This document shows positions 2,796 through 16,632 of a stretch of 64,000 nucleotides of DNA, piece by piece; the first letter of the stretch is position 1; every line of letters begins with the position of its first letter. The notes below the pieces were generated by a model, which ran no database searches, was not told the DNA's origin, and saw only the letters and a list, made by a program, of their open reading frames with translations. This DNA is from a virus (lineage: Duplodnaviria > Heunggongvirae > Uroviricota > Caudoviricetes). The stretch is taken from IMG/VR virus record IMGVR_UViG_2531839524_000004. One strand, written 5' to 3'. Made by a program: the position numbers and the translations under genes.

Positions 2796-3527
2796 ATGTT
2801 AGCGCCTACTTATTTCAAGGATGAAACAATGGGAATTAAAGCTGATATTCAGAGCTTATCTCCCTCTGCACTCATTGAGTTGTTCGTACTGGATATGTCG
2901 AACACAACTTCAGGGGGGAAGCTATTCTTCCACGCCGGAACAAACGAACTGATGCAACCGGTCGTCTGGCAAGGAGTGACATACGAGCCGTGGCCAATAA
3001 AAGCATCAGGCTTTGACAAAACGGGCCAGGGAACGTTGCCACGTCCAAAAATTCAGGTATCGAACTTTGCCGGAACCGTCTCTGCGGAAGTTCAGGCAAA
3101 CGACGATCTTGTTGGCTGCCGCATTATTCGCAAGATGACGCTGGCTCGCTTCCTCGATGCCGTTAATTTTAAAGACGGTAATCCAACAGCAGATCCAAAC
3201 CAACATTTCCCGGATGAAATGTGGTTTATCGAACAGAAAACGCTCGAAACTCATCAGGTTGTCGAGTTTGAGTTGTCCAGTGTGTTCGATTTGATGGGGG
3301 TGCAACTGCCGTATCGTCAGATCATTAAAAACACCTGCCCGTGGAAATACCGAGGGCCAGAATGCGGCTATACCGGTCCATATTTCGACAAAAATAACCA
3401 GCAGACGTCTATGTCTGGTGCTGATTACTGCACAAAACGTTATGACGCCTGTAATGCGCGTCGGAATTATTTTGCCAACGGAGTGATCCATTTTGGCGGG
3501 TTTATTGGAGCTACGCGATATGGGTAA
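2796..3527 (+). CDS. Minor tail protein (lambda gpL-like)
   Basis: 243 aa; C-terminal Cys cluster 'CPWKYRGPECGY...C...C' as in gpL Fe-S proteins; a likelier start is the internal ATG at 2829 preceded by AAGGA. Confidence 0.7.
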   Translation: MLAPTYFKDETMGIKADIQSLSPSALIELFVLDMSNTTSGGKLFFHAGTNELMQPVVWQGVTYEPWPIKASGFDKTGQGTLPRPKIQVSNFAGTVSAEVQANDDLVGCRIIRKMTLARFLDAVNFKDGNPTADPNQHFPDEMWFIEQKTLETHQVVEFELSSVFDLMGVQLPYRQIIKNTCPWKYRGPECGYTGPYFDKNNQQTSMSGADYCTKRYDACNARRNYFANGVIHFGGFIGATRYG

Positions 3528-4317
3528 TAAAGCAATCCCTGAGCTTGGCTCTGATGTTATGCAGCAAATCTATCTCTGCGCCATAAATCGCTACCCTAAT
3601 GAAGCGTGTGGCTTTCTGGTGAGAACTAATGGCGACAAATATCGCTTTATGGAAGCGCGAAATGTTTCGGAGAACCCGCAGAACACTTTTGTAATGCACG
3701 TTGACGACATTATAGCGGCAGAGGATGCAGGTGACGTAATCGCAATCTGGCATTCACATACTGATGAATCAGCAGAAGCATCTGATGCCGATCGTGCAGG
3801 CTGTGAAGCGACGGAAGTTCCGTGGATGATTCTGGCTATTCGCAAGAATGTTGAGGGAGATGCCCCTTTCCATTTTAGCGAGATGAATGTGATCACACCT
3901 GATGGTTTCGAAATGCCATACCTGGGTAGACCGTATGTATTTGGCGTATTCGATTGCTGGATGTTGTGTCGGGACTATTTGAAGCGTGAGTTTAACGTCG
4001 AGCTTAACCCGAACGCACACCTGCATATTCCATCGTGGTACACCGGCGATAACGACATTCTCGACCAGAACTACCGAAACGAAGGGTTGGTACGGCTTGC
4101 GCCTGGAACAGAGCCTCAACGTGGGGACGTCTTCTTTATTCAATACGGGAAAATGCCAGATCACTGCGCGGTTTATATCGGCGATGGAATGATTCTTCAT
4201 CACCAGATCGACCGTCTTAGTTGTCGTGCTTATTACGGCGGAATGTATCAGAAACATACGACGCATCACTTGCGTCACAGAGACTTGCTCAAGGGAGATG
4301 AGACGTGTCTGAGTTAG
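3520..4317 (+). CDS. Tail tip assembly protein (lambda gpK-like; JAMM/MPN plus NlpC/P60 domains)
   Basis: 'AIWHSHTDESAEASDADR' is an HxH...D JAMM-like motif; C-terminal 'FDCWMLCRDY' and 'DHCAVYIGDGMILHH' fit an NlpC/P60 Cys/His pair. ORF track starts at 3493; start trimmed to the ATG at 3520. Confidence 0.7.
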   Translation: MGNKAIPELGSDVMQQIYLCAINRYPNEACGFLVRTNGDKYRFMEARNVSENPQNTFVMHVDDIIAAEDAGDVIAIWHSHTDESAEASDADRAGCEATEVPWMILAIRKNVEGDAPFHFSEMNVITPDGFEMPYLGRPYVFGVFDCWMLCRDYLKREFNVELNPNAHLHIPSWYTGDNDILDQNYRNEGLVRLAPGTEPQRGDVFFIQYGKMPDHCAVYIGDGMILHHQIDRLSCRAYYGGMYQKHTTHHLRHRDLLKGDETCLS

Positions 4318-4898
4318 TTCATGTGCAGCTTGGCGGACCTATGGCTAAACATTTTGGTCGCCACTGGCATCTAAAGGTGCGCAATACAAAACAGGCTCTG
4401 GATTTAATTGAAGCCAACAAGCCTGGGTTTAAAGCATGGATGAAGCGCAATATCAAAACCTATGACAGTTACCACATCCAGATCACCAATAAACAGGGCC
4501 ACAAGTGGTCTGTTGACGAAAGTGAATATCAGATGATGGGGCAGTCTGACAACATTGCCAAAATCCGCATTACACCTGTTCCGCGAGGAAGCGGTGGATC
4601 TGCTTTTGGGTGGTTTCAGACGGTAGTAGGGGCCGCTTTGTTGGTTGTATCGGCGGTAGTGATGCCTGCTTTAGCACCTCTCGGTTTGTCACTGATGATG
4701 GGCGGCATATCACAAATCATATCGCCGCAAGCCACTAACGAAAGTGTGAGACAGGCAGATAACTCGAACTCTTATTATTTCGACGGCCCTCAAAATACAG
4801 AAAACCAGGGCAACCCAGTACAACTTATCTATGGCGAGGAAATTCTGGTTGGCTCACAGGTTGTGAGTTCTTCAATCACGATTGACCAGCTAATGTAA
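4305..4898 (+). CDS. Tail assembly protein (lambda gpI-like)
   Basis: 197 aa with a hydrophobic C-terminal segment, between gpK-like and gpJ-like genes; GTG start overlapping the upstream gene. Confidence 0.55.
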   Translation: MSELVHVQLGGPMAKHFGRHWHLKVRNTKQALDLIEANKPGFKAWMKRNIKTYDSYHIQITNKQGHKWSVDESEYQMMGQSDNIAKIRITPVPRGSGGSAFGWFQTVVGAALLVVSAVVMPALAPLGLSLMMGGISQIISPQATNESVRQADNSNSYYFDGPQNTENQGNPVQLIYGEEILVGSQVVSSSITIDQLM

Positions 4899-4909
4899 AC
4901 AAGGATTTT

Positions 4910-7900
4910 TTGAACATGGAACAGTTCAAGAAGAAAAAGCTACCGCTGTTTATTGCCGGTGCGGGTGGTAAAAAAAGCAGCAAAAGCTCCAGTCGTACAC
5001 CGGTTGAAGCCGACGATACCGTAAATTCTCGTGCAATGGCCGCTATCCTCGATCTTCTTGGGGAAGGGGTAATTGGCGGCTTAGTAAATGGCGCAAGATC
5101 TATTTTTATCGACGATCTGCCGATTGTAAATGAAGACGGTTCCTCCAACTTCAGCGGAATCACATGGGATTTTCGCGACGGTTCACAAGACCAGACTCCA
5201 ATGTCTGGCTTTGATTTCGTTGAAACGCCTAAATCCGTCAATATCCAGTTAAAAAAAACACATTATGTAACGGTTTCAATCGATAACGATGAAGCTGATC
5301 GGGTTCGTGTCATCATGAAGTTTCCTTCTTTGCGAAGCATAGATAAAAAAACTGGTGACACGAACGGTACGACTGTTGAGTACAAGTTCCAGATAGCAAA
5401 TGGCGACTCAACATTTGTAGATGTGGTCGCGGAAGGGGAAAAAAGCGTTGGCATTAAGCTAACAGCAAAGAAGACCGGCGTTTATTACCGTAGCTATGAG
5501 CTGAAGCTGCCTAAGCCTGGACGCGCATACAAGGTTCGTGTAGTCCGTATTACCGATGATAACAGTAGCCAGTATCTCTATAACGATACATGGGTGGATT
5601 CAATCGGGGAAATTGTCGATACACCGATGAACTATCCAAACTCTGTTTTGGTTGGATTGAAGGTAAACTCTGAGCAATTCGGCAGCACCATGCCATCTCG
5701 CTCTTATCTGGTGCGTGGCCTAAAAATTCGAGTACCTTCAAACTATAACGAGTCCAGTAACACTTACGCTGGGGTATGGGATGGCACTTTTAAGCTGTTG
5801 TCTTCTTCGAACCCCGCGTGGATTCTCTTTGATTTGCTGACCAATGCTCGATATGGCCTTGGTCAGTATGTGTCGGAATCTATGATTGACCTTGGCCAGT
5901 TGTACCAGATTGGTCGATATTGTGACGAAGAGGTCGATGATGGCTTTGGTGGCAAAGAGAAACGCTTTGCAATCAATACGCAGATCACCAGTCGACAGGA
6001 CGCATACCGGCTAATTCAGGATATTGCTGGAGCATTCCGCGGCATGGTGTTTTGGGCTGGTGGGATGGTTAACATCATGCAGGATAGCCCATCAGATCCG
6101 GTAATGATGTTTACCAACTCTAACGTCAAAGATGGATTGTTTACCTATAAAGGTTCTGCGCGTAAAGATCGCCCATCCGTTGCGCTCGTAACCTACAACA
6201 ACAAGGAGGACGGTTATAAGCAAAACATCGAGTACGTTGAAGATCAGGACGCAATGCGCCGTTATGGTGAGCGTAAGACAGAAGTCGTAGCATTTGGCTG
6301 TACAAGCCGAGGGCAGGCTCACCGAGTTGGTTTATGGCTTTTATATACCGCCAGAATGGAGTCGGATGTAATTACATTTACTGCCGGCTTAGACGCGTCA
6401 TTTCTGATGCCTGGTGAAACCGTTCTGATTCAGAACAAATATCGCGCAGGCAAACGTAACTCAGGTCGAATTGTGGCGTTTACCAAAAACAGCGTCACAC
6501 TCGATGCGCCTGTGTCGTTAGCCAAAGGCGGCTGCTTTATTCGAATACTGAATCAGGAAGGCAAAATCGTTGAACGCGATGTTCTTGAAACTGGCGAAAA
6601 TATAACAAAAGTTACGTTTTCAAAAGCCCTGTCTTCGGCTGAAACGCCTGTTTTGAACGGCGTCTGGACTATTACAGAACCAGACCTCGAACCTATGCGC
6701 GTTCGCATCGTTAACATCGCGCAGGGGGAAACGCCGGGTAGCTTTGACATCACCGCTGTTGAGAACAATCCGTCTAAATATGAGGCGATCGACAATGGTG
6801 CAACGCTTATCCCGCAAAATACGACGGTATTGGACCCGACTTACTCCAAGCCGTCTAATTTGCAAATCACCGAAGGGACTTATCTCTCAAGCCCTGGCAA
6901 CCTGTCAGTAAAACTGACTGCAACATGGGAAGGGAAATCTCCAGAGTATTGGATCAGTTGGCGACGTTCTGATGAAAACAATGTATCGAACTGGCAATCG
7001 GCGCGTGTAACCGAAGAGCAATACGAAATCGTTAATGTTGCGGAGAATGGACGCTACGACTTCCAGCTGTATGCGGTTTCATTCAACGGTAAAAAAACAG
7101 AGATTATCAGTACCGTTTATCAGGTGCTGGGCACAATGACACCGCCAGATGCCCCAACGTCATTAACGGCCGTTGGAGACTATCGTAATGTGATACTGAA
7201 TTGGGTTAATCCAGATTCGGTAGACCTTGATCACATTAATGTTTACGCGTCCCAGACCAATAATCTGGATACGGCGAAACTGATCGCAGAGTCTGCAAGC
7301 ACCACCTTTACACATGCTGGTCTTGGGGATAGCGAAACGTGGTATTACTGGGTTCGAGCATCGAACAAGCGAGGTATGTTAAGTCCTCCGAACTCAAACT
7401 TGGGTACAGAGGCGACAACTCGCGATGTACTGTCGTTCCTGACTGGCAAAATTACATCTTCCGAGCTTGGTCAGGCTCTGCTTGAGGACATCAACAGCAA
7501 AGCCTCTCAAGAAGCCGTTGACGAGTTAAATGAGCATATCAACCAGAGCGTCGAATCTTTGGAGGGGGCGGTAAACGACGTTAAGGAAGATATAGCTGAA
7601 TTAGATAAGCAGTTCAGCGATAACCTCGCGGATTTTGAAATAAAATTCAACGAGCGTAGCGATGCTTTGGAGAACGCACAAACCGAGCTTAAAGGGGAGG
7701 TTTCGGCAACGATCGACAAGGTCAATGAAGCGTTTGAAAAAATTGATGCTACTGATGCTGCAATTGTTGAAATCGAAAATACAGTATCTGAACACGATAA
7801 AGCTCTCGCTAATACAGTCGAGGCAATAAAGGCTGCAAGAGATGAAGCGGCGGCTCTTATTGCTAAGGAAAGCGAGGCTCGTGTTGAAGGCGATGCTGCA

Positions 7901-9643
7901 AACGCTAAACAACTGGAAGTGTTGCAGTCAACGGTAGAGGAAAGCTCCGCTGCCGTTGAAGAAATGAAAAAGACGGTTGCAGAGGTCGATCGTGCAAGTG
8001 CAGAACTGACTACGAACATTGAGGCGTTAGCCAAAACAAATATTGACCTGGCTCTTCGTCAAGATGAAGACCAGCACAAGCAGATGGTCAATAACGCGAA
8101 GATCGCAACAACACAGAAAACCTTTGCTGATGATATGTCTGCAATGGCTACGAAGGTTGAAGAAATTCGCGTAGAAATTGGCGAAGACATTAAGGCCAGT
8201 ATTCTGGAAGAGTCCACCGCGCGTGCCGATGGCGATGAAGCGTTAGCAAAGCGTGTCACTCAGCTGCAATCTAAGTTTGAAGGAGATATCAGCGCGGCGA
8301 TTAGTACAGAACAGGAGGCTCGTACATCTGCCGATGAAGCTTTGACGAAACAAATAACTCAGCTTGAGTCGAAAGTAAGCAACGATATTGTCGCAGCCAT
8401 TAAGGAAGAGCAAGAAGCCCGAGCAACGGAAGATTCGGCTCTGGCAAGCCAGATCACCCAACTTCAGGCAAAAGTTGATGATGATATTTCTGCTGCAATA
8501 CGCAGTGAGCAGGAGGCTCGTGCGAGCGGAGACTCTGCGTTAGCTAAACAAATAAACCAGCTTCAAGCAAAGGTTGACGGTGATATATCCGCCGCCATCA
8601 CTCAGGAGCAGGAGGCCAGAGCAAGTGCTGACGAGGCGCTCTCACGAGAAATTAACAGCCTGCGGGCGCAGACCGGAACTGACATTGCCGCAGCCGTTGC
8701 TGTAGAGACAAAGGCAAGGACTGACGCTGATAGTGCATTGTCCAGCCAGATTACATCTCTTACAGCAAAAGCTAATGATCTCGAGGCGTCTCTTGCCAAA
8801 GAAACAACGGCTCGTGCAGATGGGGATACCGCTTTAACAAAAGAGGTTTCAAGTTTAAAAGCACAGACTGCGAAAGATATTAGTGCGGCCGTTGCAGTGG
8901 AAACGCAGGCTCGAACTGATGCTGACTCGGCGTTGTCATCTCAGATCACCAAGCTGACCTCTCAATACAAAGAGGATATTAAAGCGGCTGTGGCAACCGA
9001 AACGAAAACGCGTACAGAGCAAGATGCGGCATTGGCGACCCAAATCACAAACTTAGAGTCTCAAACAGCAGCCAACATTTCTGCGGCGGTCACAACTGAA
9101 ACGACAGCGAGAACGCAGGCAGATAATGCTCTAAGTGGGCGAATCGATACTCTGAAAGCAGAGGTGGATGGAAATACCGCGACAATTCAACAGCAGGCAA
9201 CAGCTATTGCTGATACCAACAAAAAAGTGTCAACCGCGTGGACGTTGAAAATGGAGACTTCAACGAGCGGAGGGCAGAAGTATGTTGCCGGTATTGCGCT
9301 TGGTATTGACACCACTGGGCTATCTCAGTTTTTGGTTCAGGCGGACAGGTTTGGTTTGGTCAACTCTGTCAACGGGAAGATCACCACGCCATTTGTTATC
9401 GAAAACAGTATTGCCTATATGAATGGTGCTTATATCAAGGATGGCACAATCACCAATGCAAAGGTAGGCGATCTGCAATCTACCAATTTTGTTAGCGGTA
9501 GATCTGGATGGCGATTCGGTAAAAATGGAACGCTTGAAATAAACGGTAATAGCGGCGGCAATGGGCGATTGGTCATTAATGGTCAGCGGATTGACGTTTA
9601 TGACGATAACAACGTCCTACGAGTAAGAATTGGCCGTCTGTGA
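4910..9643 (+). CDS. Tail tip / central fibre host-specificity protein (lambda gpJ-like) with an inserted coiled-coil repeat array
   Basis: 1577 aa following the K/I-like genes; large N-terminal region typical of gpJ-like proteins; C-terminal half holds tandem 33-aa repeats. Confidence 0.8.
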   Translation: MNMEQFKKKKLPLFIAGAGGKKSSKSSSRTPVEADDTVNSRAMAAILDLLGEGVIGGLVNGARSIFIDDLPIVNEDGSSNFSGITWDFRDGSQDQTPMSGFDFVETPKSVNIQLKKTHYVTVSIDNDEADRVRVIMKFPSLRSIDKKTGDTNGTTVEYKFQIANGDSTFVDVVAEGEKSVGIKLTAKKTGVYYRSYELKLPKPGRAYKVRVVRITDDNSSQYLYNDTWVDSIGEIVDTPMNYPNSVLVGLKVNSEQFGSTMPSRSYLVRGLKIRVPSNYNESSNTYAGVWDGTFKLLSSSNPAWILFDLLTNARYGLGQYVSESMIDLGQLYQIGRYCDEEVDDGFGGKEKRFAINTQITSRQDAYRLIQDIAGAFRGMVFWAGGMVNIMQDSPSDPVMMFTNSNVKDGLFTYKGSARKDRPSVALVTYNNKEDGYKQNIEYVEDQDAMRRYGERKTEVVAFGCTSRGQAHRVGLWLLYTARMESDVITFTAGLDASFLMPGETVLIQNKYRAGKRNSGRIVAFTKNSVTLDAPVSLAKGGCFIRILNQEGKIVERDVLETGENITKVTFSKALSSAETPVLNGVWTITEPDLEPMRVRIVNIAQGETPGSFDITAVENNPSKYEAIDNGATLIPQNTTVLDPTYSKPSNLQITEGTYLSSPGNLSVKLTATWEGKSPEYWISWRRSDENNVSNWQSARVTEEQYEIVNVAENGRYDFQLYAVSFNGKKTEIISTVYQVLGTMTPPDAPTSLTAVGDYRNVILNWVNPDSVDLDHINVYASQTNNLDTAKLIAESASTTFTHAGLGDSETWYYWVRASNKRGMLSPPNSNLGTEATTRDVLSFLTGKITSSELGQALLEDINSKASQEAVDELNEHINQSVESLEGAVNDVKEDIAELDKQFSDNLADFEIKFNERSDALENAQTELKGEVSATIDKVNEAFEKIDATDAAIVEIENTVSEHDKALANTVEAIKAARDEAAALIAKESEARVEGDAANAKQLEVLQSTVEESSAAVEEMKKTVAEVDRASAELTTNIEALAKTNIDLALRQDEDQHKQMVNNAKIATTQKTFADDMSAMATKVEEIRVEIGEDIKASILEESTARADGDEALAKRVTQLQSKFEGDISAAISTEQEARTSADEALTKQITQLESKVSNDIVAAIKEEQEARATEDSALASQITQLQAKVDDDISAAIRSEQEARASGDSALAKQINQLQAKVDGDISAAITQEQEARASADEALSREINSLRAQTGTDIAAAVAVETKARTDADSALSSQITSLTAKANDLEASLAKETTARADGDTALTKEVSSLKAQTAKDISAAVAVETQARTDADSALSSQITKLTSQYKEDIKAAVATETKTRTEQDAALATQITNLESQTAANISAAVTTETTARTQADNALSGRIDTLKAEVDGNTATIQQQATAIADTNKKVSTAWTLKMETSTSGGQKYVAGIALGIDTTGLSQFLVQADRFGLVNSVNGKITTPFVIENSIAYMNGAYIKDGTITNAKVGDLQSTNFVSGRSGWRFGKNGTLEINGNSGGNGRLVINGQRIDVYDDNNVLRVRIGRL
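8186..9174 (+). repeat. Ten tandem 99-bp (33-aa) repeats inside the gpJ-like gene
   Basis: Repeat units such as 'DISAAISTEQEARTSADEALTKQITQLESKVSN' and 'DIVAAIKEEQEARATEDSALASQITQLQAKVDD' recur in-frame. Confidence 0.75.
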
Positions 9644-9736
9644 TGGTGGAAAAAAAATTTTATATCGGTAAGAATAGGTAAGTACTTACTTAATGGCGGG
9701 CAAGGATAGCCCGCCAAATCAAGGAGCATATTCAAC

Positions 9737-12700
9737 ATGTGGTACAGGGAAGGTACTATCACATTTACACAGGGTAGCAATACTCTGGTTGGGGCAGGGA
9801 CAGCCTGGAACGTAACAGCTAATGGGGTGTTGCCTGGGATGATCGTCATTGGCCCCGACAACAAGCTGTATGAGATCAAGCGCGTAACCAGTGATACGAA
9901 CATTGTTCTCTCAGAACCTTATACCGGCGAAACTCAGTCTGAAGTTCCGTGCCGAATCATTACGACCTATGAAGGCGACTTAACACAGTTTAGCGCGCGC
10001 TTTACTGCACTAATGTCGCGTATGTCGGCTGATTCCAAGTCCATGCGCAGTTGGTTGACTGCTCTGGATGAGGTGACAATCGAGCGTGAAGACGGTACAG
10101 AAGTGACCGTTAAGCCGCTAATGCAGATCGTCAACGAGCACAACGAAAACGTTGAGTGGTATAAAAATAACACTGACGCGATTGATGCTGCTGGCGACAA
10201 AGCTCGTGAGGCGGCGGCCAGTGCTGCCGCAGCAGCAGAAAGCGCCAATACCGCTGGAGAAAAAGCCTCTCAAGCGTCTCAAAGTGCATCCGCTGCGGCA
10301 TCCTCACAAAGTGCTGCAAGTGCGAGCGCAACTGCTGCGAAAAAATCTGAAACGAACGCACAAGCCGCAAAAGAAGCGGCAGCAGAATCAGCATCTTTAG
10401 CGTCGGCCAAAGCATCGGAGGCAGCAACATCTGCGTCCAGTGCCTCTGCATCTAAGGATGCAGCCAAAGCATCAGAGACTAACGCTTCATCGAGCGCAAA
10501 CGCGGCAGCATCATCGGCAACAGAAGCTGCAAATTCGTCTAAGGCAGCAAAAACGTCAGAGGCAAACGCAAAAGCATCTGAAACGGCAGCCGAACAGAGT
10601 GCATCGTCTGCAAACAGTTCGAAATCTGCGGCAGAAGCGTCAGCAAGCGCAGCCTCAGCAAGTGCGGATAGTGCTTCATCAAGTGCAACAGCGGCAGGAA
10701 AATCTGCGGATAGCGCATTGTCATCAGCGACAACAGCTACCACAAAAGCGACAGAGGCGACGAGTCAGGCTACAGCTGCTAAAAATTCAGCATCTGCAGC
10801 AAAAACCTCTGAAACAAATGCAAAGACTTCAGAAGACAATGCTGCTTCCTCTAAGGCGGCAGCTGCTGAATCTGCAAGTTCTGCGTCTGCATCAGCCTCC
10901 TCAGCATCCGCTTCAAAAGATGAGGCGACCAAGCAGGCATCAGAAGCGAAGGGCAGTGCTTCAACGGCATCCACGAAAGCAACAGAGGCGGCAGGCAGTG
11001 CGACGGCTGCATCTCAGAGCAAAACTGCTGCTGAATCCGCTGCGACCCGTGCGGAAGCTGCTGCTGATCGTGCTGAAGAGATTGCCGGTGCAGTTGCGAT
11101 GGAAGACGCAAGCCTTACAACTAAAGGTGTTGTGAAACTTAGCAGTGCTGTCGATAGCACCAGTGAATCGCTGGCCGCAACGCCAAAAGCAGTTAAAGCA
11201 GCCAATGACAATGCGAATAGCAGGGTGCCATCTAACCGAAAAATTAACGGAAAAGCACTGACTGCGGATATAACATTAACGCCGAAAGATATTGGTACTT
11301 TAAATTCAGTAACGATGTCTTTCTCTGGCGGGGCTGGGTGGTTCAAACTGGCTACGGTTACCATGCCACAAGCGAGTTCCATCGTTTACATCACATTGAT
11401 TGGTGGTGCTGGATATAATGTTAACTCCCCTATGCAGGCTGGTATATCTGAACTTGTTCTTCGTGCGGGAAATGGAAATCCAAAAGGTCTTACTGGTGCG
11501 TTATGGCGAAGGACATCGGTTGGATTTACTAATTTTGCATGGGTGAATACATCCGGCGATACATATGATATTTATGTTGAGATTGGCAATTATGCGACGA
11601 GTGTAAATGTCCACTGGGATTGTACTGCAAATGCGTCAGTTTCTATTTATACATCGCCAACATATTCAGCGAGTAAGCCTGCCAGCGTTACCGATGGTGT
11701 TGTTTATACGATGTATAGCTCACATCAGAAACCTACGCCATCAGATATTGGAGCACTGCCAACAACCGGAGGAACAGTTTCTGGTCCGTTGTCTGTTACA
11801 GGCGGATTAACTGGTTCATTGAATGGTAATGCAAGTACAGCAACGAAATTACAGACGACAAGAACTATCGGCGGCGGGAGCTTTGATGGTACTGCAAATA
11901 TTAATTTGCCAGGTGTTAATACGACTGGTAATCAGAATACAACAGGTAATGCGGCTACTGCTACGAAGTTGCAGACTGCGCGTACTATTAATGGGGTGTC
12001 GTTTGACGGTTCGGCAAATATTTCCTTGTCACCAGCAAATATAGGTTGCCCGGCATCTCCTACTGGTTGGTTAACTACAGGAAGTAATGGCGGAGCAATA
12101 ACAACAGCCCAGTTAGTGACGTTATTGCAAAATAATGGAGCCTTTAACACAAAGGCATGGATTGCTCGATGTGCGTGGGCCTATGCCAATAGCGCAACCA
12201 TACCAAATAGTGAAACTGGTTGTGGCGTTATTCCATTGGCAGGAGCTGTTATAGAAGTATTTAATAACGGTAGTAGTTCAAATAATTATACGATCCGCAT
12301 AACAACGGCCACAACGACAAGTGTTTCCGGTGCTCTCACTAATGCGGAGTTTATCTATGTATTTAATGGCACAGATTATTCTCCAGGATGGCGAAGAGTA
12401 TATAACACGAAAAACAAACCAACTGCATCTGACGTTGGTGCATTACCTCTTACCGGTGGTACATTATCTGGAGGTTTGACATCTTCTGGTGAGATCGTTT
12501 CAAAATATGCAAATGGTTTCCGCATTGCTTACGGTAGCTTTGGGTTCTTTATCCGTAATGACGGCGGCAGCACATATTTCATGCTAACAGCATCAGGAGA
12601 TACGTTAGGTTCATGGAACGGCTTGCGACCGATTACAATTAATAATACTAGCGGGGTTGTGTCTATTGGTAATGGACTAAATGTTACTGGTGGCGTAAAT

Positions 12701-13645
12701 GGTAGTTTGAACGGTAATGCTTCAACAGCTACGAAGTTGCAAACAGCGAGAAACATCAATGGTGTTAAGTTTGATGGCTCAGGCGATATCAACATTAATA
12801 CATTGGTATCTCGTGGCCGAGTTACGGCGTTAAGCGGCTCTACTCAAGGCACTGCTGGCATTCAAATGTACGAGGCGTACAACAATAGCTATCCGACCAC
12901 GTATGGCAACGTATTGCACATGAAAGGTGCGAGTGCTGCTGGCGAGGGTGAGTTGCTTATTGGCTGGAGTGGTACGAGCGGTGCACATGCGCCGGTTTTC
13001 ATTCGCTCCCGAAGAGATACCACTGATGCAGCATGGTCAGCGTGGGCACAGGTATATACCGCTAAGGATTCAATCCCTGGTGTGAATACAACCGGTAATC
13101 AGAACACTACTGGTAATGCTGCCACCGCCACAAAATTGCAGACAGCAAGGAAAATTGCTGGTGTGGCGTTTGATGGCTCTGCCGATATTACTTTGACTGC
13201 GGCTAACCTTAATGCCTATACGAAAACAGAGGTAACAAACCTTCTAAGTTCCTATGTGAAGAGCAGTTCTCTTCCAAGCATGACTGTGCGAACTTCCTCT
13301 GTTTCAGGTGGGGATATGGGCATGAGTTTGTCCGCATTCATTAGCCACCTTAAATCAAATGGGGCGTTTAGCAAAAGTTATTGGATTGGCTTTGGCGATG
13401 CTATGGGATTCAATGCTGGCAGTATCAACAATATAACGGGATTTGGTGCTGTAGAATTAGCAGAATCCATAATCGAAGTTTTTAATCTACCTAATGGTGA
13501 TTATACAATTCGTTTAACGACGTCACACAAAGCTGACTACGGTGGGATTACAAACGCAATCCTCGTTTATCACTACCGCAGTAATAGAAACCCGGCAGGT
13601 CAATGGCTTAAATTTGCCGGTACTCTTGGGGCTACAAACAACTGA
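9737..13645 (+). CDS. Tail fibre protein
   Basis: 1302 aa; Ala/Ser-rich low-complexity segment, then four copies of 'GNA(S/A)TATKLQT(A/T)R.I.G..FDGS' and two copies of 'GVNTTGNQNTTGNA', motifs typical of phage fibre repeats; more AT-rich distal part. Confidence 0.75.
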   Translation: MWYREGTITFTQGSNTLVGAGTAWNVTANGVLPGMIVIGPDNKLYEIKRVTSDTNIVLSEPYTGETQSEVPCRIITTYEGDLTQFSARFTALMSRMSADSKSMRSWLTALDEVTIEREDGTEVTVKPLMQIVNEHNENVEWYKNNTDAIDAAGDKAREAAASAAAAAESANTAGEKASQASQSASAAASSQSAASASATAAKKSETNAQAAKEAAAESASLASAKASEAATSASSASASKDAAKASETNASSSANAAASSATEAANSSKAAKTSEANAKASETAAEQSASSANSSKSAAEASASAASASADSASSSATAAGKSADSALSSATTATTKATEATSQATAAKNSASAAKTSETNAKTSEDNAASSKAAAAESASSASASASSASASKDEATKQASEAKGSASTASTKATEAAGSATAASQSKTAAESAATRAEAAADRAEEIAGAVAMEDASLTTKGVVKLSSAVDSTSESLAATPKAVKAANDNANSRVPSNRKINGKALTADITLTPKDIGTLNSVTMSFSGGAGWFKLATVTMPQASSIVYITLIGGAGYNVNSPMQAGISELVLRAGNGNPKGLTGALWRRTSVGFTNFAWVNTSGDTYDIYVEIGNYATSVNVHWDCTANASVSIYTSPTYSASKPASVTDGVVYTMYSSHQKPTPSDIGALPTTGGTVSGPLSVTGGLTGSLNGNASTATKLQTTRTIGGGSFDGTANINLPGVNTTGNQNTTGNAATATKLQTARTINGVSFDGSANISLSPANIGCPASPTGWLTTGSNGGAITTAQLVTLLQNNGAFNTKAWIARCAWAYANSATIPNSETGCGVIPLAGAVIEVFNNGSSSNNYTIRITTATTTSVSGALTNAEFIYVFNGTDYSPGWRRVYNTKNKPTASDVGALPLTGGTLSGGLTSSGEIVSKYANGFRIAYGSFGFFIRNDGGSTYFMLTASGDTLGSWNGLRPITINNTSGVVSIGNGLNVTGGVNGSLNGNASTATKLQTARNINGVKFDGSGDININTLVSRGRVTALSGSTQGTAGIQMYEAYNNSYPTTYGNVLHMKGASAAGEGELLIGWSGTSGAHAPVFIRSRRDTTDAAWSAWAQVYTAKDSIPGVNTTGNQNTTGNAATATKLQTARKIAGVAFDGSADITLTAANLNAYTKTEVTNLLSSYVKSSSLPSMTVRTSSVSGGDMGMSLSAFISHLKSNGAFSKSYWIGFGDAMGFNAGSINNITGFGAVELAESIIEVFNLPNGDYTIRLTTSHKADYGGITNAILVYHYRSNRNPAGQWLKFAGTLGATNN

Positions 13646-13848: not shown

Positions 13849-14172
13849 ATGTCGAACGAGATGGCGGGCGTTACAACAGAGCAAGTTGAGCGTATTGCCG
13901 CGATCGTTGCTCGGGAGGTTGTTGGCAAATTAGGCAAAGAGCTACGTGAAGAAATTGGCCAGGAGGTCAATGATCAGCTGAAAACCTACTTTGGTGATAT
14001 GACCCCGGCGCAACATAGTATTCAACACTCCAACCTGGACAAGCTCCTTAACCGGTTAGATTCCATCTCCAGTGGGTTCTTTGGCGGCATTGTTTCTAAA
14101 ATAACGTCGTTCATTATTACTGCACTGCTTTTGGGGTTAGCCGCGTATGGCGTAAAAAATGGACTGCAATAA
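13849..14172 (+). CDS. Holin-like small membrane protein (putative)
   Basis: 107 aa with a single C-terminal TM segment 'ITSFIITALLLGLAAYGV'; immediately precedes the putative endolysin with overlapping ends. Topology is atypical for a holin. Confidence 0.35.
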   Translation: MSNEMAGVTTEQVERIAAIVAREVVGKLGKELREEIGQEVNDQLKTYFGDMTPAQHSIQHSNLDKLLNRLDSISSGFFGGIVSKITSFIITALLLGLAAYGVKNGLQ

Positions 14173-14185
14173 CAGGAGATCAAGG

Positions 14186-14878
14186 ATGAAGACTCCGAGA
14201 GGCATTCGTAATAATAACCCCGGTAATCTTGATAAAGGATCACCGTGGCAAGGTCTGGTTGCGAATCCAGATGAACCGCGCTTTTGCACGTTTAAAGACC
14301 CTGTTTGGGGGATTCGTGCGTTGGCGGTGACTCTAATTACCTACCACGACAAACGTCGCGCAAAAGACGGCTCAAGTATCGATACCATTCGTGAAGTTAT
14401 TGAACGTTGGGCACCGCCGAATGAAAACAACACTGACGCCTACATTAATGAGGTGTCTAAAGCCGTTGGTGTAACCGCAGACATGATCATCGATCTGCAT
14501 GATTACGACATTCTTCGACCTTTGGTTGAGGCAATCATTCGCCATGAGAATGGGCGAGGTCCGCTAAAAACGCTGAACACCTGGTATGCGGCAGAAGTTA
14601 TTGAGGAAGGTCTGCGTCGAGCTGGCGTCGTTAAGCCGGTGAAAACCGTGAAGGCTGTTCCTGTAACTAAAGAAACAGCAGGCGCAACTGTCACAGCAGG
14701 TATTGGTCTGGCGCAGCTGGCCGATGTTATGCCGCAGGTTTCCGCTGCTATGGATAAAGCACAAGGTCATATCTCTAGCGGGGATACAGTACGCATCATC
14801 TTCGGTATTGCCACTATTGTTGTGGCTGGATTTATCGCCTGGTCGCAGGTAAGAAGACACCAGAAAGGGATGGTCTAA
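14186..14878 (+). CDS. Putative endolysin / peptidoglycan hydrolase with C-terminal membrane segment
   Basis: 'GIRNNNPGNL' N-terminal motif, which I associate with phage cell-wall hydrolases; located between holin-like and spanin genes; ATG at 14186 is preceded by AGGAG. Confidence 0.5.
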   Translation: MKTPRGIRNNNPGNLDKGSPWQGLVANPDEPRFCTFKDPVWGIRALAVTLITYHDKRRAKDGSSIDTIREVIERWAPPNENNTDAYINEVSKAVGVTADMIIDLHDYDILRPLVEAIIRHENGRGPLKTLNTWYAAEVIEEGLRRAGVVKPVKTVKAVPVTKETAGATVTAGIGLAQLADVMPQVSAAMDKAQGHISSGDTVRIIFGIATIVVAGFIAWSQVRRHQKGMV

Positions 14879-14879
14879 T

Positions 14880-15131
14880 ATGCTAGGCAGCCTGATGACA
14901 AAGCTCAAAGTTGCTTTGATTACGCTGGCTGCCGTTCTTTTCGTTCTGGTCGGCGCTTACACGATGGGCGGAAATGCGGCGCGACGAGCAATGGAAGAGA
15001 AGGCAAAACAGGAAGACAGGAAACGACTTCAAAGCACAGTGGACGTCAAAAATGAAACACTTGATGAGTTACGGCGCAAGGATGCTTCTACTGTTCATCA
15101 TGAGTTGCACAATAAGTGGTTGCGTGATTAA
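14880..15131 (+). CDS. i-spanin (Rz-like)
   Basis: 83 aa with N-terminal TM 'LKVALITLAAVLFVLVGAYTMG' then charged coiled-coil-like region; directly after the endolysin. Confidence 0.5.
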   Translation: MLGSLMTKLKVALITLAAVLFVLVGAYTMGGNAARRAMEEKAKQEDRKRLQSTVDVKNETLDELRRKDASTVHHELHNKWLRD

Positions 15132-15282
15132 GCCTCAATCCTCTGGTGTGCTTTTCTGCGATGCGGCTACACCGCTATACATCAGCCGTGATGATCTCAT
15201 GACCGAAGAGACTGAAAGGGAAGTACTTTTTCACAATATGATAGGGGAGCGATTGTGTGGATGGGGCAGAAAAGTGCCATAA
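15052..15282 (+). CDS. o-spanin lipoprotein (Rz1-like), out-of-frame overlap with the i-spanin gene
   Basis: 'MKHLMSYGARMLLLFIMSCTISGCV' has a signal peptide and lipobox-like 'ISGC'; start lies inside the i-spanin gene in another frame, the classic Rz/Rz1 arrangement. Confidence 0.5.
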   Translation: MKHLMSYGARMLLLFIMSCTISGCVIKPQSSGVLFCDAATPLYISRDDLMTEETEREVLFHNMIGERLCGWGRKVP

Positions 15283-15456
15283 TAAAAGCGGAATTTTCTA
15301 ACATAAAATTTGCATATTATTAGAGCACAAGGTAGATTTGAAGCATGGATGTCAAGTAAATCATACCTTGTTTTAATAAATCGACGCATACTCGTAGCCT
15401 CTAAACCGACAAGGTCGCCGCTATGACATAAAGTTATTACCGGCTAAGGTGGAAAC

Positions 15457-15855
15457 ATGCATACTGCACTTAACGCATCTCGTTCTATTCAGACGATAAG
15501 AGACTGTACCAAGATGATCGCATCGGTTCCGTTGCGACATTGGAATGACTCGCTCCAAATTCGTGAAATGAACAAACCGGGTATGCTTAAGGATCAGCGT
15601 TTCATCGTTAACCTTAAAAGTGACGTTGAAGAAGGCAAGTTTACCATCAAATTGTTTGCAGAAATGATGGTGCTCAACAATCGGTTACGTTTTCTTGTTA
15701 AGCCAGAAAAACAGTTTCCCGATGTTGTGCGTTGTGAACAGGATGCTTTCTATGAGATTGAAAGCAAAATAGCTAAATTTATCAAAGATAAATACCGCGT
15801 AGATGTTAAAATAGCGAAACTGGATTCATCTACGGATATGCGGCTTGCTAACTAA
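15457..15855 (+). CDS. Hypothetical protein (first gene of a two-gene cargo operon)
   Basis: 132-aa ORF with its own upstream intergenic region; no motif recognised. Confidence 0.5.
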   Translation: MHTALNASRSIQTIRDCTKMIASVPLRHWNDSLQIREMNKPGMLKDQRFIVNLKSDVEEGKFTIKLFAEMMVLNNRLRFLVKPEKQFPDVVRCEQDAFYEIESKIAKFIKDKYRVDVKIAKLDSSTDMRLAN

Positions 15856-16632
15856 ATGTCACCATCATTCATAGCAGAGTATTCAAAAGTACTGTCTGGT
15901 TTCCCTGAATGTGAAGCAAGAGAGAAAATCAGAGTTGGCTACATGGTTAACTCTGATTTTTCTGTTTTACGGCTCACAGAGTGGTCCTTGATCGGGTCTA
16001 ATTATGATTACTGTTTGACAGTGTCATTTGTAGGCGACCCTGATGCAGATTGGCTTCAAGAACATGCAATGGATCTTGACGAGCAGGGGTATTCAGAAGC
16101 AGAGATAGTTCATAGTGTTCGTGAATTAGTTGGTGATGAGCAAGAAGATGATGACGGCATTCAGATCGCCAGGTTCGTCTACAAACGATTCCAGTTTCGC
16201 TCACAAAAAGGCTCTCATCTTGGGGTCCAGATTAAAGGGGCATTTGTAACCCCTTCAAAGGAACAAAAGGGACTTGCTAGAAGAGTTTACAATTTCCTTC
16301 TCAATTGGCATGACCATGTGGTATGTGATGACCATCAGACGGTTTACGGTGCCAGAATTTGGGCGGTCGGTATGCTTCTGGTCGGGCGTGTCCAAATCTA
16401 TGACAATTTAAACAAAGAATTTATAGATGTCCTTGTTGAAGGTGGTATTGGGCAGAATGGCGTCAAACCGTGGGACGCGCTGCTATTGAGCAGCGAGGCC
16501 CAGTTACGTCACTGGAACCCTATGGCCGTCAGCATAGACCCATCTAGTCAGATTCTCGCCATCATCTCCAAAGAAGACCGTCACATTGAAGTGGGCGTTA
16601 CAACTTTTGACGCCAGGTCTACCAACCATTAA
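15856..16632 (+). CDS. Hypothetical protein (second gene of the cargo operon)
   Basis: 258-aa ORF abutting the previous gene; followed by a rho-independent terminator; acidic stretch 'GDEQEDDDG'. Confidence 0.5.
   Translation: MSPSFIAEYSKVLSGFPECEAREKIRVGYMVNSDFSVLRLTEWSLIGSNYDYCLTVSFVGDPDADWLQEHAMDLDEQGYSEAEIVHSVRELVGDEQEDDDGIQIARFVYKRFQFRSQKGSHLGVQIKGAFVTPSKEQKGLARRVYNFLLNWHDHVVCDDHQTVYGARIWAVGMLLVGRVQIYDNLNKEFIDVLVEGGIGQNGVKPWDALLLSSEAQLRHWNPMAVSIDPSSQILAIISKEDRHIEVGVTTFDARSTNH

Follow-up and report, generated by a model that had tools for sequence, protein, structure and literature searches.

The window analysed here, i.e., the whole stretch of 64,000 nucleotides (nt) of the IMG/VR virus record IMGVR_UViG_2531839524_000004, is an SSU5-like Escherichia coli phage-plasmid of the Cyrano/pLF82 type. 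It encodes a gpJ-like central fibre, or tail-tip, protein of 1575 amino acids (aa) (4916..9643, + strand), in which ten tandem 33-aa units were found (8186..9172, + strand), i.e., a 329-residue array at aa 1091-1419. The array is read as a modular metastable coiled-coil spring within the shaft of the central fibre, and we give this reading a probability of about 0.6. The repeats, the order of domains, the homology, the helix prediction, the motifs, and the copy-number variants are observed here; from these we infer that the shaft is probably a trimer, that it may switch its fold, that side fibres may dock on it, and that the number of modules may affect reach, stroke, or host range.

The array was recognized by a hidden Markov model (HMM), identity autocorrelation, and motif search. 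The units start at nt 8186, 8285, 8384, 8483, 8582, 8681, 8780, 8876, 8975, and 9074; unit 7 is 32 aa long and the other nine are 33 aa. An HMM built from the units detected all ten, with 47-60 bits each, and one weak copy upstream. The identity autocorrelation at lag 33 was 0.497, while the maximum over all lags in 1000 shuffles was 0.194. These statistics agree with a preliminary description of the window, which had placed ten tandem 33-aa repeats at 8186-9174, except that the array ends at 9172, 2 nt short. The unit consensus is DI(S/K)AA(I/V)xxExxARxxxDxALxxxIxxLxxxxxx. The residues A4, E9, R13, D17, A19, L20, and L27 are invariant across all ten units, and the consensus given earlier is in line with them. 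For residues 862-1419, no repeat family was found in Pfam, PHROGs, and NCBIfam, where the hits were generic "tail fiber" PHROGs only.

The repeat is confined to the protein level, and the DNA is not a tandem repeat as the term is usually meant. The pairwise nucleotide identity of the units is 41-64%, with a mean of 51%, and falls to 31% when third codon positions are compared. At the 99-nt offset, exact matches reach 11 nt at most, with GAGCAGGAGGC at 8507 and 8606. The preliminary description had spoken of a 99-bp periodic array; its 33-aa periodicity in the protein was retained, but the framing as a DNA tandem repeat was rejected because Tandem Repeats Finder returned no 99-nt array on 6000-12000, and the units were analysed at the protein level instead.

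In the proposed structure, the array would form the distal two-thirds of an alpha-helical shaft of ~550 residues (aa 862 to ~1409), which would be ~80 nm long if fully helical and would hold the beta-structured tip domain away from the tail tip. AlphaFold2 predicted residues 862-1156 as one continuous helix with a mean predicted local distance difference test (pLDDT) score of 84. Residues 1223-1409, i.e., most of units 5-10, were predicted as one helix with pLDDT >90 over most of its length, followed by beta strands. The inputs were monomers with shallow alignments of 24-28 sequences. The hydrophobicity spectrum of the array had its main peaks at 2.06 and 3.65 residues, which are the 16th and 9th harmonics of 33, and the strongest was the strand-like period of 2.06. 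At the canonical heptad period of 3.5 the array showed no power, and power was present at 3.65-3.67. A coiled coil would agree with both the 3.65 period and the predicted helix.

Sequence alignment shows that the shaft shares homology with the coiled-coil shafts of F-type pyocin, T1 gp33, and DEV gp56. In searches against PDB, the best match of the shaft and tip was T1 gp33 (9l9p_S, E = 7.8e-31). Other matches were F2-pyocin PyoF10 (25vf_A, E = 2.5e-25, residues 1274-1547 versus 926-1193), DEV gp56 (9ze4_N, E = 1.2e-17), and the J-like gp24 (23GD). The last array unit can be aligned almost position by position with the part of the pyocin shaft for which refolding was demonstrated. From this homology, the shaft is probably a trimeric coiled coil. 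The helical rod suggested in the preliminary description was therefore supported in two ways, i.e., by the single AlphaFold2 helix and by homology to solved trimeric coiled-coil shafts.

The F-type pyocins have a trimeric coiled-coil shaft after the fibronectin type III (FN3) domains, with the side fibres on the shaft, and their central fibre ends in a beta-prism tip without a receptor-binding domain; a fold switch with subunit-wise sheets is described for them (PMC12874032, PMC13455828, bioRxiv 2026.02.24.707460). He et al. reported that, once the receptor is contacted, the 163-residue F7 shaft refolds to a triangular beta-prism, so that the tip opens and the tape-measure protein is set free, and that Gln at the small prism-corner residues abolishes killing while assembly stays intact (PMC12874032). 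Each prism strand has the motif SxSxxMxxLxS, the orientation of which tracks the strand, and an acidic M is paired with Arg at +/-4 (PMC12874032). The text of He et al. never uses the word "repeat" (PMC12874032).

This motif was found twice in every unit of the array. The reverse motif lies at unit positions 4-14 (A-x-I/V/L-x-x-E-x-x-A/T-R-A/T) and the forward motif at positions 19-29 (A-L-S/T/A-x-x-I/V-x-x-L-x-A/S), in 10/10 units. In total, 14 forward and 11 reverse matches were counted, and shuffled sequences gave 2.4 of each on average, with maxima of 7 and 8. Per 100 aa, the array has 7.6 motif matches, compared with 0.5-0.9 for the J hub, side fibre, and tape-measure protein. Within the unit, the motif positions rank with the best-conserved columns; the small residues A4, A12, and A19 are invariant or nearly so, and E9 always occurs with R13 at +4, matching the description of He et al. 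The T1 gp33 and F2-pyocin shafts showed the same reverse/forward alternation every 15-18 residues, with a period of ~33. Because each unit carries the motif pair and the array has both strand-like and hendecad periods, one unit can be read either as a beta-hairpin or as nine helical turns.

The mechanism proposed from these features is as follows. In the helical state, the 33-residue module would make nine turns, i.e., three 11-residue hendecads, and by the 3.67-residue spacing E9, R13, and D17 would face the core, where they could form the buried salt bridges that He et al. describe. In the F7-pyocin homologue, the motif pattern of the module marks the beta-prism strands formed upon receptor contact. 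One module would thus make one beta-hairpin of the prism, and the array would be a ten-module version of the metastable spring. By analogy, the shaft could also be a platform for side fibres. The number of modules would shift rarely, by exact 99-nt slippage or by illegitimate recombination at short microhomologies; only in-register events were seen, presumably because helical phase and hairpin parity are kept. The preliminary description had considered fibre length and possibly host range; since homologous shafts refold to a beta-prism and dock side fibres, these are probably not the whole function.

An extension of the spring reading is that, in siphophage central fibres, the alpha-to-beta fold switch is quantal, with the 33-aa unit as its module, and that the number of units tunes the spring. 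We hold this only tentatively and think it rather unlikely. If true, each unit would occupy ~4.9 nm in the loaded state (nine turns) and ~1 nm of prism after firing, and the module number would set the reach of the fibre and its shortening or energy upon firing. Ten modules, if fully switched, would go from ~49 nm to ~10 nm. The natural series of 1, 4, 5, 6, 9, 10, and 11 modules would then be an evolutionary tuning to cell envelopes, and synonymous scrambling of the DNA would keep each module number stable. For virions attributed to Cyrano, tails of 259 +/- 12 nm were measured, versus 230 nm expected from the 1525-aa tape-measure protein, in a study in which fibres are not mentioned (PMC9928086). 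The tip and a portion of the central fibre might contribute to the additional 30 nm.

Repeat numbers were compared across relatives, as the preliminary description had suggested, and they were found to differ, from 1 to 11 units, always by exact multiples of 99 nt. The segment from shaft to tip (nt 7900-9450) was found on plasmids in 168 of 5426 complete E. coli genomes (~3%) and never on chromosomes. In PLSDB, 781 records have a match. Lengths over the segment were read from 60 rows, sampled evenly from the 168 E. coli plasmids; the length of the window, i.e., ten units, was found in 55 of them. At least three of the 168 closely related plasmids were unit-number variants. Alleles of 9, 10, and 11 units occur in one clade of 96-99% identity, at low frequency.

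Four changes of one unit were mapped. Plasmid pCUPF07B has 11 units by a perfect 99-nt tandem duplication after 8518, and its new unit consists of the head of unit 5 fused to the tail of unit 4 at the common GAGCAGGAGGC. Nine units were found in HCP30S3_I2, which is without nt 8468-8566, and in CT01 / AH04, which are without about nt 8507-8605. In a sister lineage, PhiR41_1 has nine units by one 99-nt deletion versus CMS-2020a SCU-175 (ten units), flanked by 11-nt identity. These two are 99.65% identical (0.35% substitutions), and the deletion takes out the unit positionally equivalent to unit 4 here. The nine-unit alleles are three independent 99-nt deletions at short microhomologies. For CT01/AH04, a crossover at an 11-nt microhomology, with the window taken as the parent, was considered and given up; closer relatives allow a position 15-27 nt further on, with 3-nt identity. 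As this crossover position is uncertain, the microhomology is stated only as 11 nt or less. All four changes fall in units 3-5 (8384..8680, + strand), the sub-region in which the DNA identity of the units is highest (56-64%).

More distant elements have fewer units. Six were found in Yersinia pestis pMT1 and in one Salmonella type, and five in SSU5, an Enterobacter hormaechei plasmid, and E. coli P59A. Another Salmonella plasmid has four, and an E. coli variant with a 1229-aa protein has one. The first unit, the last unit, and a conserved block upstream of the array are retained in all of these elements.

The unit number changes rarely, by microhomology-mediated slippage at microhomologies of 11 nt or less. 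Recombination between tandem DNA repeats, which the preliminary description had put forward, was not borne out, since the units are too diverged in DNA for homologous recombination between copies. In the SCU-175 lineage, the ten units correspond 1:1 with those of the window, although the DNA is ~35% diverged over the region. A ~50% identical metagenomic relative (Logan SRR29272715, contig 6001-9714) has a nine-unit array, i.e., eight 33-aa units and a short C-terminal unit, in which three consecutive units share 94-100% protein identity but 73-76% DNA identity, with shared words of <=11 nt. These units are either old copies under very strong protein constraint or the result of selection against DNA identity between neighbours. 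Taken together, the 1:1 correspondence and this contrast of protein and DNA point to old, stably kept copies and not to rapid turnover.

The shaft upstream of the array was divided into three parts. Its start (aa 862-944; 7499..7747, + strand), delimited by AlphaFold2 and motif count, has no recognizable units and little of the fold-switch motif (1.2 per 100 aa). Three degenerate proto-units with 32-aa spacing follow (aa 945-1036; 7748..8023, + strand). They were recognized by motif positions, i.e., reverse at aa 948, 980, and 1012 and forward at aa 963 and 995 (5.4 per 100 aa), and by a weak HMM match at aa 977-1009. Because the proto-units still carry the reverse/forward pair, the motif-bearing region, and any switch with it, may begin well before nt 8186. 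Over aa 862-1090, the hydrophobic period peaks at 3.56.

The third part is a conserved non-repeat block, "...ALAKTNIDLALRQDEDQHKQMVNNAKIATTQKTFADDMSAMATKVEEI" (aa 1037-1088; 8024..8179, + strand), in which the nearly invariant columns across 24 homologues are concentrated. The block hardly changes between genera or between alleles, whether these have 1 unit or as many as 11, and the acidic patch "RQDEDQ" lies within it. In F-type pyocins, an acidic kink binds the side fibres, and by analogy the block is a candidate docking site for them.

A number of points weigh against the spring reading and the docking conjecture. The work of He et al. is a preprint (PMC12874032). The fold switch and side-fibre docking were demonstrated in F-type pyocins, whereas the SSU5-like tail tip is known from sequence. 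The shaft here is 2 to 3.4 times the length of the 163-residue segment shown to switch, a length that may or may not refold cooperatively. The packing, too, may not be the same, since the pyocin shaft is described as mainly heptad with one stutter and the array follows a strict 11/3 period. The motif itself is degenerate, and the ten units, being homologous, do not count as independent trials. AlphaFold2 on monomers with shallow alignments returned only the helical state and is silent on trimer and beta states. For the conserved block, a kink was expected and AlphaFold2 predicted an unbroken helix. When residues 1-450 of the side fibre were searched for homology to the pyocin docking domain, no PDB match covered them.

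The most serious alternative is that the array is a static spacer, i.e., a stable trimeric coiled-coil rod that sets the distance from the tail tip to the distal tip domain, e.g., across O-antigen or capsule, and never refolds, so that the motif match would be the small/hydrophobic pattern of any alanine-rich hendecad coil. Such a rod would fit the confident helix that is the only product of AlphaFold2, the 3.65 period of a regular hendecad coil, the natural alleles of 1 to 11 units, which suggest that length is what varies, and the fact that lambda and T5 function without such a switch. A plain coiled coil, however, does not need the 2.06 peak, which is strand-like and the strongest in the spectrum, and it gives no explanation of why the small residues A4, A12, and A19 are invariant or nearly so although they would be solvent-exposed in the coil. 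The helical tape-measure protein of the window has a twelve-fold lower motif density, and the last unit aligns residue by residue with the refolding pyocin segment. It is thus reasonable to regard the static rod as unlikely, while it retains a substantial share of the probability. In a further alternative, the virion already holds the shaft as a beta-prism, as lambda does with its central straight fibre, and the helix prediction is an artefact of monomer modelling. This would account for the 2.06-residue periodicity and for the presence of all strand motifs. It also agrees with the report that AlphaFold with deep alignments gives only the prism and that AlphaFold 3 gives it for 30% of phage homologues (PMC12874032). 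Three independent cryo-electron microscopy studies, however, show a coiled coil in F-type pyocins before ejection, the AlphaFold2 helix exceeds pLDDT 90 over most of residues 1223-1409, and the E9-R13-D17 charges, spaced i to i+4, fit helical salt bridges. A native prism is very improbable.

The variable unit number could also be taken as the sign of a contingency-type hypervariable locus, in which frequent recombination of 99-bp repeats makes fibre-length variants and shifts host range. Exact 99-nt gains and losses among near-identical genes, all four within units 3-5, are what such a locus would produce. Against it, the units are 51% identical in DNA on average, their longest offset-99 match is 11 nt, and Tandem Repeats Finder detected nothing; 55 of the 60 sampled plasmids have the same length despite 2-4% sequence difference. 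The 1:1 correspondence of the ten units with a ~35% diverged lineage, and the units of another lineage that are 94-100% identical in protein yet 73-76% in DNA, indicate long retention. A hypervariable locus is therefore improbable, if less so than a native prism, and the metastable spring is preferred.

The gpJ-like gene starts with ATG at 4916, with an in-frame TTG at 4910, and its stop codon is at 9641-9643; it was assigned by ORF (open reading frame) translation and Pfam. The assignment as a gpJ-like tail-tip protein in the preliminary description was confirmed by gene order and by the domains FNIII-A_GpJ (residues 102-236), Phage-tail_3 (358-521), and fn3 (745-824), with E-values of 1e-29 to 7e-34, and Phage_Tail_Tip (PF09327, formerly DUF1983; aa 1423-1557, nt 9182-9586, E = 1.4e-41). 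The hub and FN3 part (aa 1-861; 4916..7498, + strand) is homologous to lambda J residues 3-837 and matched 8iyk_J (E = 2.3e-124, residues 19-861), 25vf_A, and 9l9p_S in PDB. The C-terminal beta-structured tail-tip domain (aa 1420-1575; 9173..9640, + strand) was delimited by Pfam, PDB alignment, and AlphaFold2 strands. It aligns to lambda J 839-971, T1 gp33 986-1168, and F2 pyocin. In a Foldseek search of PDB, this domain was recognized, with matches to 8xcj and 8xci (lambda central tail fibre) and 7z4b (phage SU10 tail protein), and the shaft was not. The protein ends in "...LRVRIGRL", with no lambda-type receptor-binding domain beyond the tip domain. With NCBIfam NF049904 (lambda_TipJ), it scored 526 bits, below the cut-off of 1950. 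It is a gpJ/TipJ-type central fibre protein and not the LamB-binding lambda J itself.

Escherichia phage Cyrano (= pLF82) encodes a "tail host specificity protein J" that shares 99.5% identity with the J-like protein, and the proteins encoded on several E. coli plasmids are 100% identical to it. The gene follows homologues of tape-measure, gpM, gpL, and gpK genes and an ORF at the gpI position, in lambda order. By Pfam, these were assigned as the C-terminal part of the tape-measure protein (35-2368, Tape_meas_lam_C), gpM-like (2411-2746, Phage_min_tail), gpL-like (2796-3527, Phage_tail_L), and gpK-like (3493-4317, Prok-JAB and NLPC_P60), all on the + strand; the gpI-position ORF (4305-4898, + strand) had no Pfam match and was assigned by position only. 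The gpK-like gene, with its Prok-JAB and NlpC/P60 domains, shares 35 nt with the end of the gpL gene, which is the usual arrangement of lambda gpK. A side tail fibre gene encoding 1302 aa lies directly downstream of the gpJ-like gene (9737..13645, + strand; Pfam Gp34_trimer), and in PDB it matched T4 gp34 and the tail fibre protein S of Mu. This fibre is a mosaic, i.e., the N-terminal ~450 aa were unmatched in solved structures and the rest contains segments that resemble Mu S and the T4 gp34 trimerisation domain. Among the small ORFs at 13849-16632, for which Pfam was uninformative, no separate receptor-binding protein for docking to the tip was identified.

The J gene is broken by insertion sequence (IS) elements, i.e., IS1203, IS100, ISEc52, and other IS3-family elements, in at least eight complete E. 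coli plasmids. As their J gene is interrupted, those phage-plasmids are probably tail-defective. In pEC7518-111k, the IS1203 insertion was mapped to the part encoding the tip domain, near window 9370-9420, outside the array. In NZ_CP024271.1, the match was 1553 nt long for the 1551-nt query (7900-9450), and these 2 nt, if real, would shift the J frame. In the protein database, several dozen N-terminal J fragments, most of them ~100% identical, end at scattered positions of aa 904-1090, inside the shaft and shortly before the array. An explanation by assembly breaks caused by the repeats was not adopted, as the DNA is without long repeats, and the pattern comes at least partly from the use of the C-terminal half as query and from clustering by coverage. 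Contig breaks at IS insertions, mixed alleles in the samples, or the querying alone may lie behind it.

It has long been asked what powers non-contractile tails when they open their tip and breach the envelope. In the pyocin work of 2026, a metastable coiled coil that refolds into a beta-prism is proposed as the answer. The locus described here offers a natural test series for this spring idea, because near-identical tail tips carry 1 to 11 copies of the presumed module. With the series, the effect of spring length, the identity of the 33-aa unit as a hairpin, and the relation of module number to envelope type or host range can be tested. SSU5-like phage-plasmids are very common in E. coli, and Enterobacter, Salmonella, and Yersinia pestis (pMT1) have them as well. 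The locus further illustrates how genetic stability can be given to a long protein repeat, i.e., by divergence of the DNA copies at synonymous sites, with occasional exact unit steps in length. These features are relevant to tailocin engineering and to host-range inference from phage-plasmid genomes bearing resistance genes.

Compared with lambda gpJ (8IYK, 8XCJ), the hub, FN3, and Phage_Tail_Tip parts are homologous and the gene order M-L-K-I-J is common to both. The LamB-binding domain of lambda (972-1132) is absent here, and the alignment ends at lambda residue 971 of 1132. Lambda J aligns in two pieces, i.e., 3-837 to residues 19-861 and 839-971 to residues 1418-1547. The array sits between the FN3 domains and Phage_Tail_Tip, two parts that adjoin in lambda J. 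As lambda passes directly from residue 837 to 839 and the counterparts here are residues 861 and 1418, the J-like protein has ~560 extra residues, which are helical. The preliminary description was therefore right that lambda J is without this segment. Its word "inserted" is apt for the architecture but not for a recent event, as the same shaft is found in F-type pyocins, T1, and DEV.

Among the SSU5-like J proteins (SSU5_020, pMT1, pHCM2-type Salmonella plasmids, and Enterobacter plasmids), the gene, the conserved block, the tip, and the type of unit are the same and the end units are orthologous, but they have 6, 5, 4, or 1 units versus 10 here. The J protein of Y. pestis pMT1 has another C-terminal extension. 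The Klebsiella-type J is different, with 4494 aa and unrelated repeats. In the K. pneumoniae AR_0097 plasmid (NZ_CP032196.1, 74956-88440), the "phage tail protein" at the J position is annotated with 13,485 nt (4,494 aa); its distal part has no 33-aa units and shows beta-rich inserts between other helical repeats ("...ALQNTVTQQGKD...").

T1 gp33 (PDB 9L9P) has at least three 33-aa units with the same motif pair and the same "...RVxIGRL" tip domain, and the J-like proteins of Drexlerviridae are grouped with it as near relatives. It is 1172 aa long with far fewer units, and T1 is a virulent phage and not a phage-plasmid. Its C-terminal 350 residues are unresolved and predicted only, protruding ~37 nm (PMC11945409). 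Residues 1083-1192 and 1513-1575 of the J-like protein are matched in the DEV gp56 short fibre (PDB 9ZE4) by a module of coiled coil and J-type tip. This module recruits the separate receptor-binding proteins gp55 and gp54 and holds the tail plug (PMC12892993). Unlike the J-like protein, DEV gp56 is 429 aa long, has no hub part, and belongs to the tail of a Pseudomonas podophage.

Among the closest known systems is the central fibre protein of the F-type pyocins (F7; F2 PyoF10, PDB 25VF; PA0641), with a hub, two FN3 domains, a helical shaft, and a PF09327 tip without a receptor-binding domain. A significant alignment runs across the last five units and the tip, with the same alternating motif and E/D-R pairs. 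In both, a side-fibre gene lies downstream, immediately so here, whereas PyoF11 and PyoF12 intervene in the pyocins. The pyocin shaft is 163-180 residues long, while it is ~550 residues here, of which 329 form the clean ten-fold 33-aa array, and the pyocin papers describe neither a repeat unit nor variation in copy number. The pyocin is a tailocin, and the window is an infectious phage-plasmid. The array thus belongs to a known class, i.e., gpJ-type central fibres with a coiled-coil shaft, the mechanism of which was clarified only in 2026. Within this class, the strict 33-aa modular construction, the 1:1 relation of the unit to the fold-switch motif pair, and the natural range from 1 to 11 modules among SSU5-like phage-plasmids appear to be undescribed so far.

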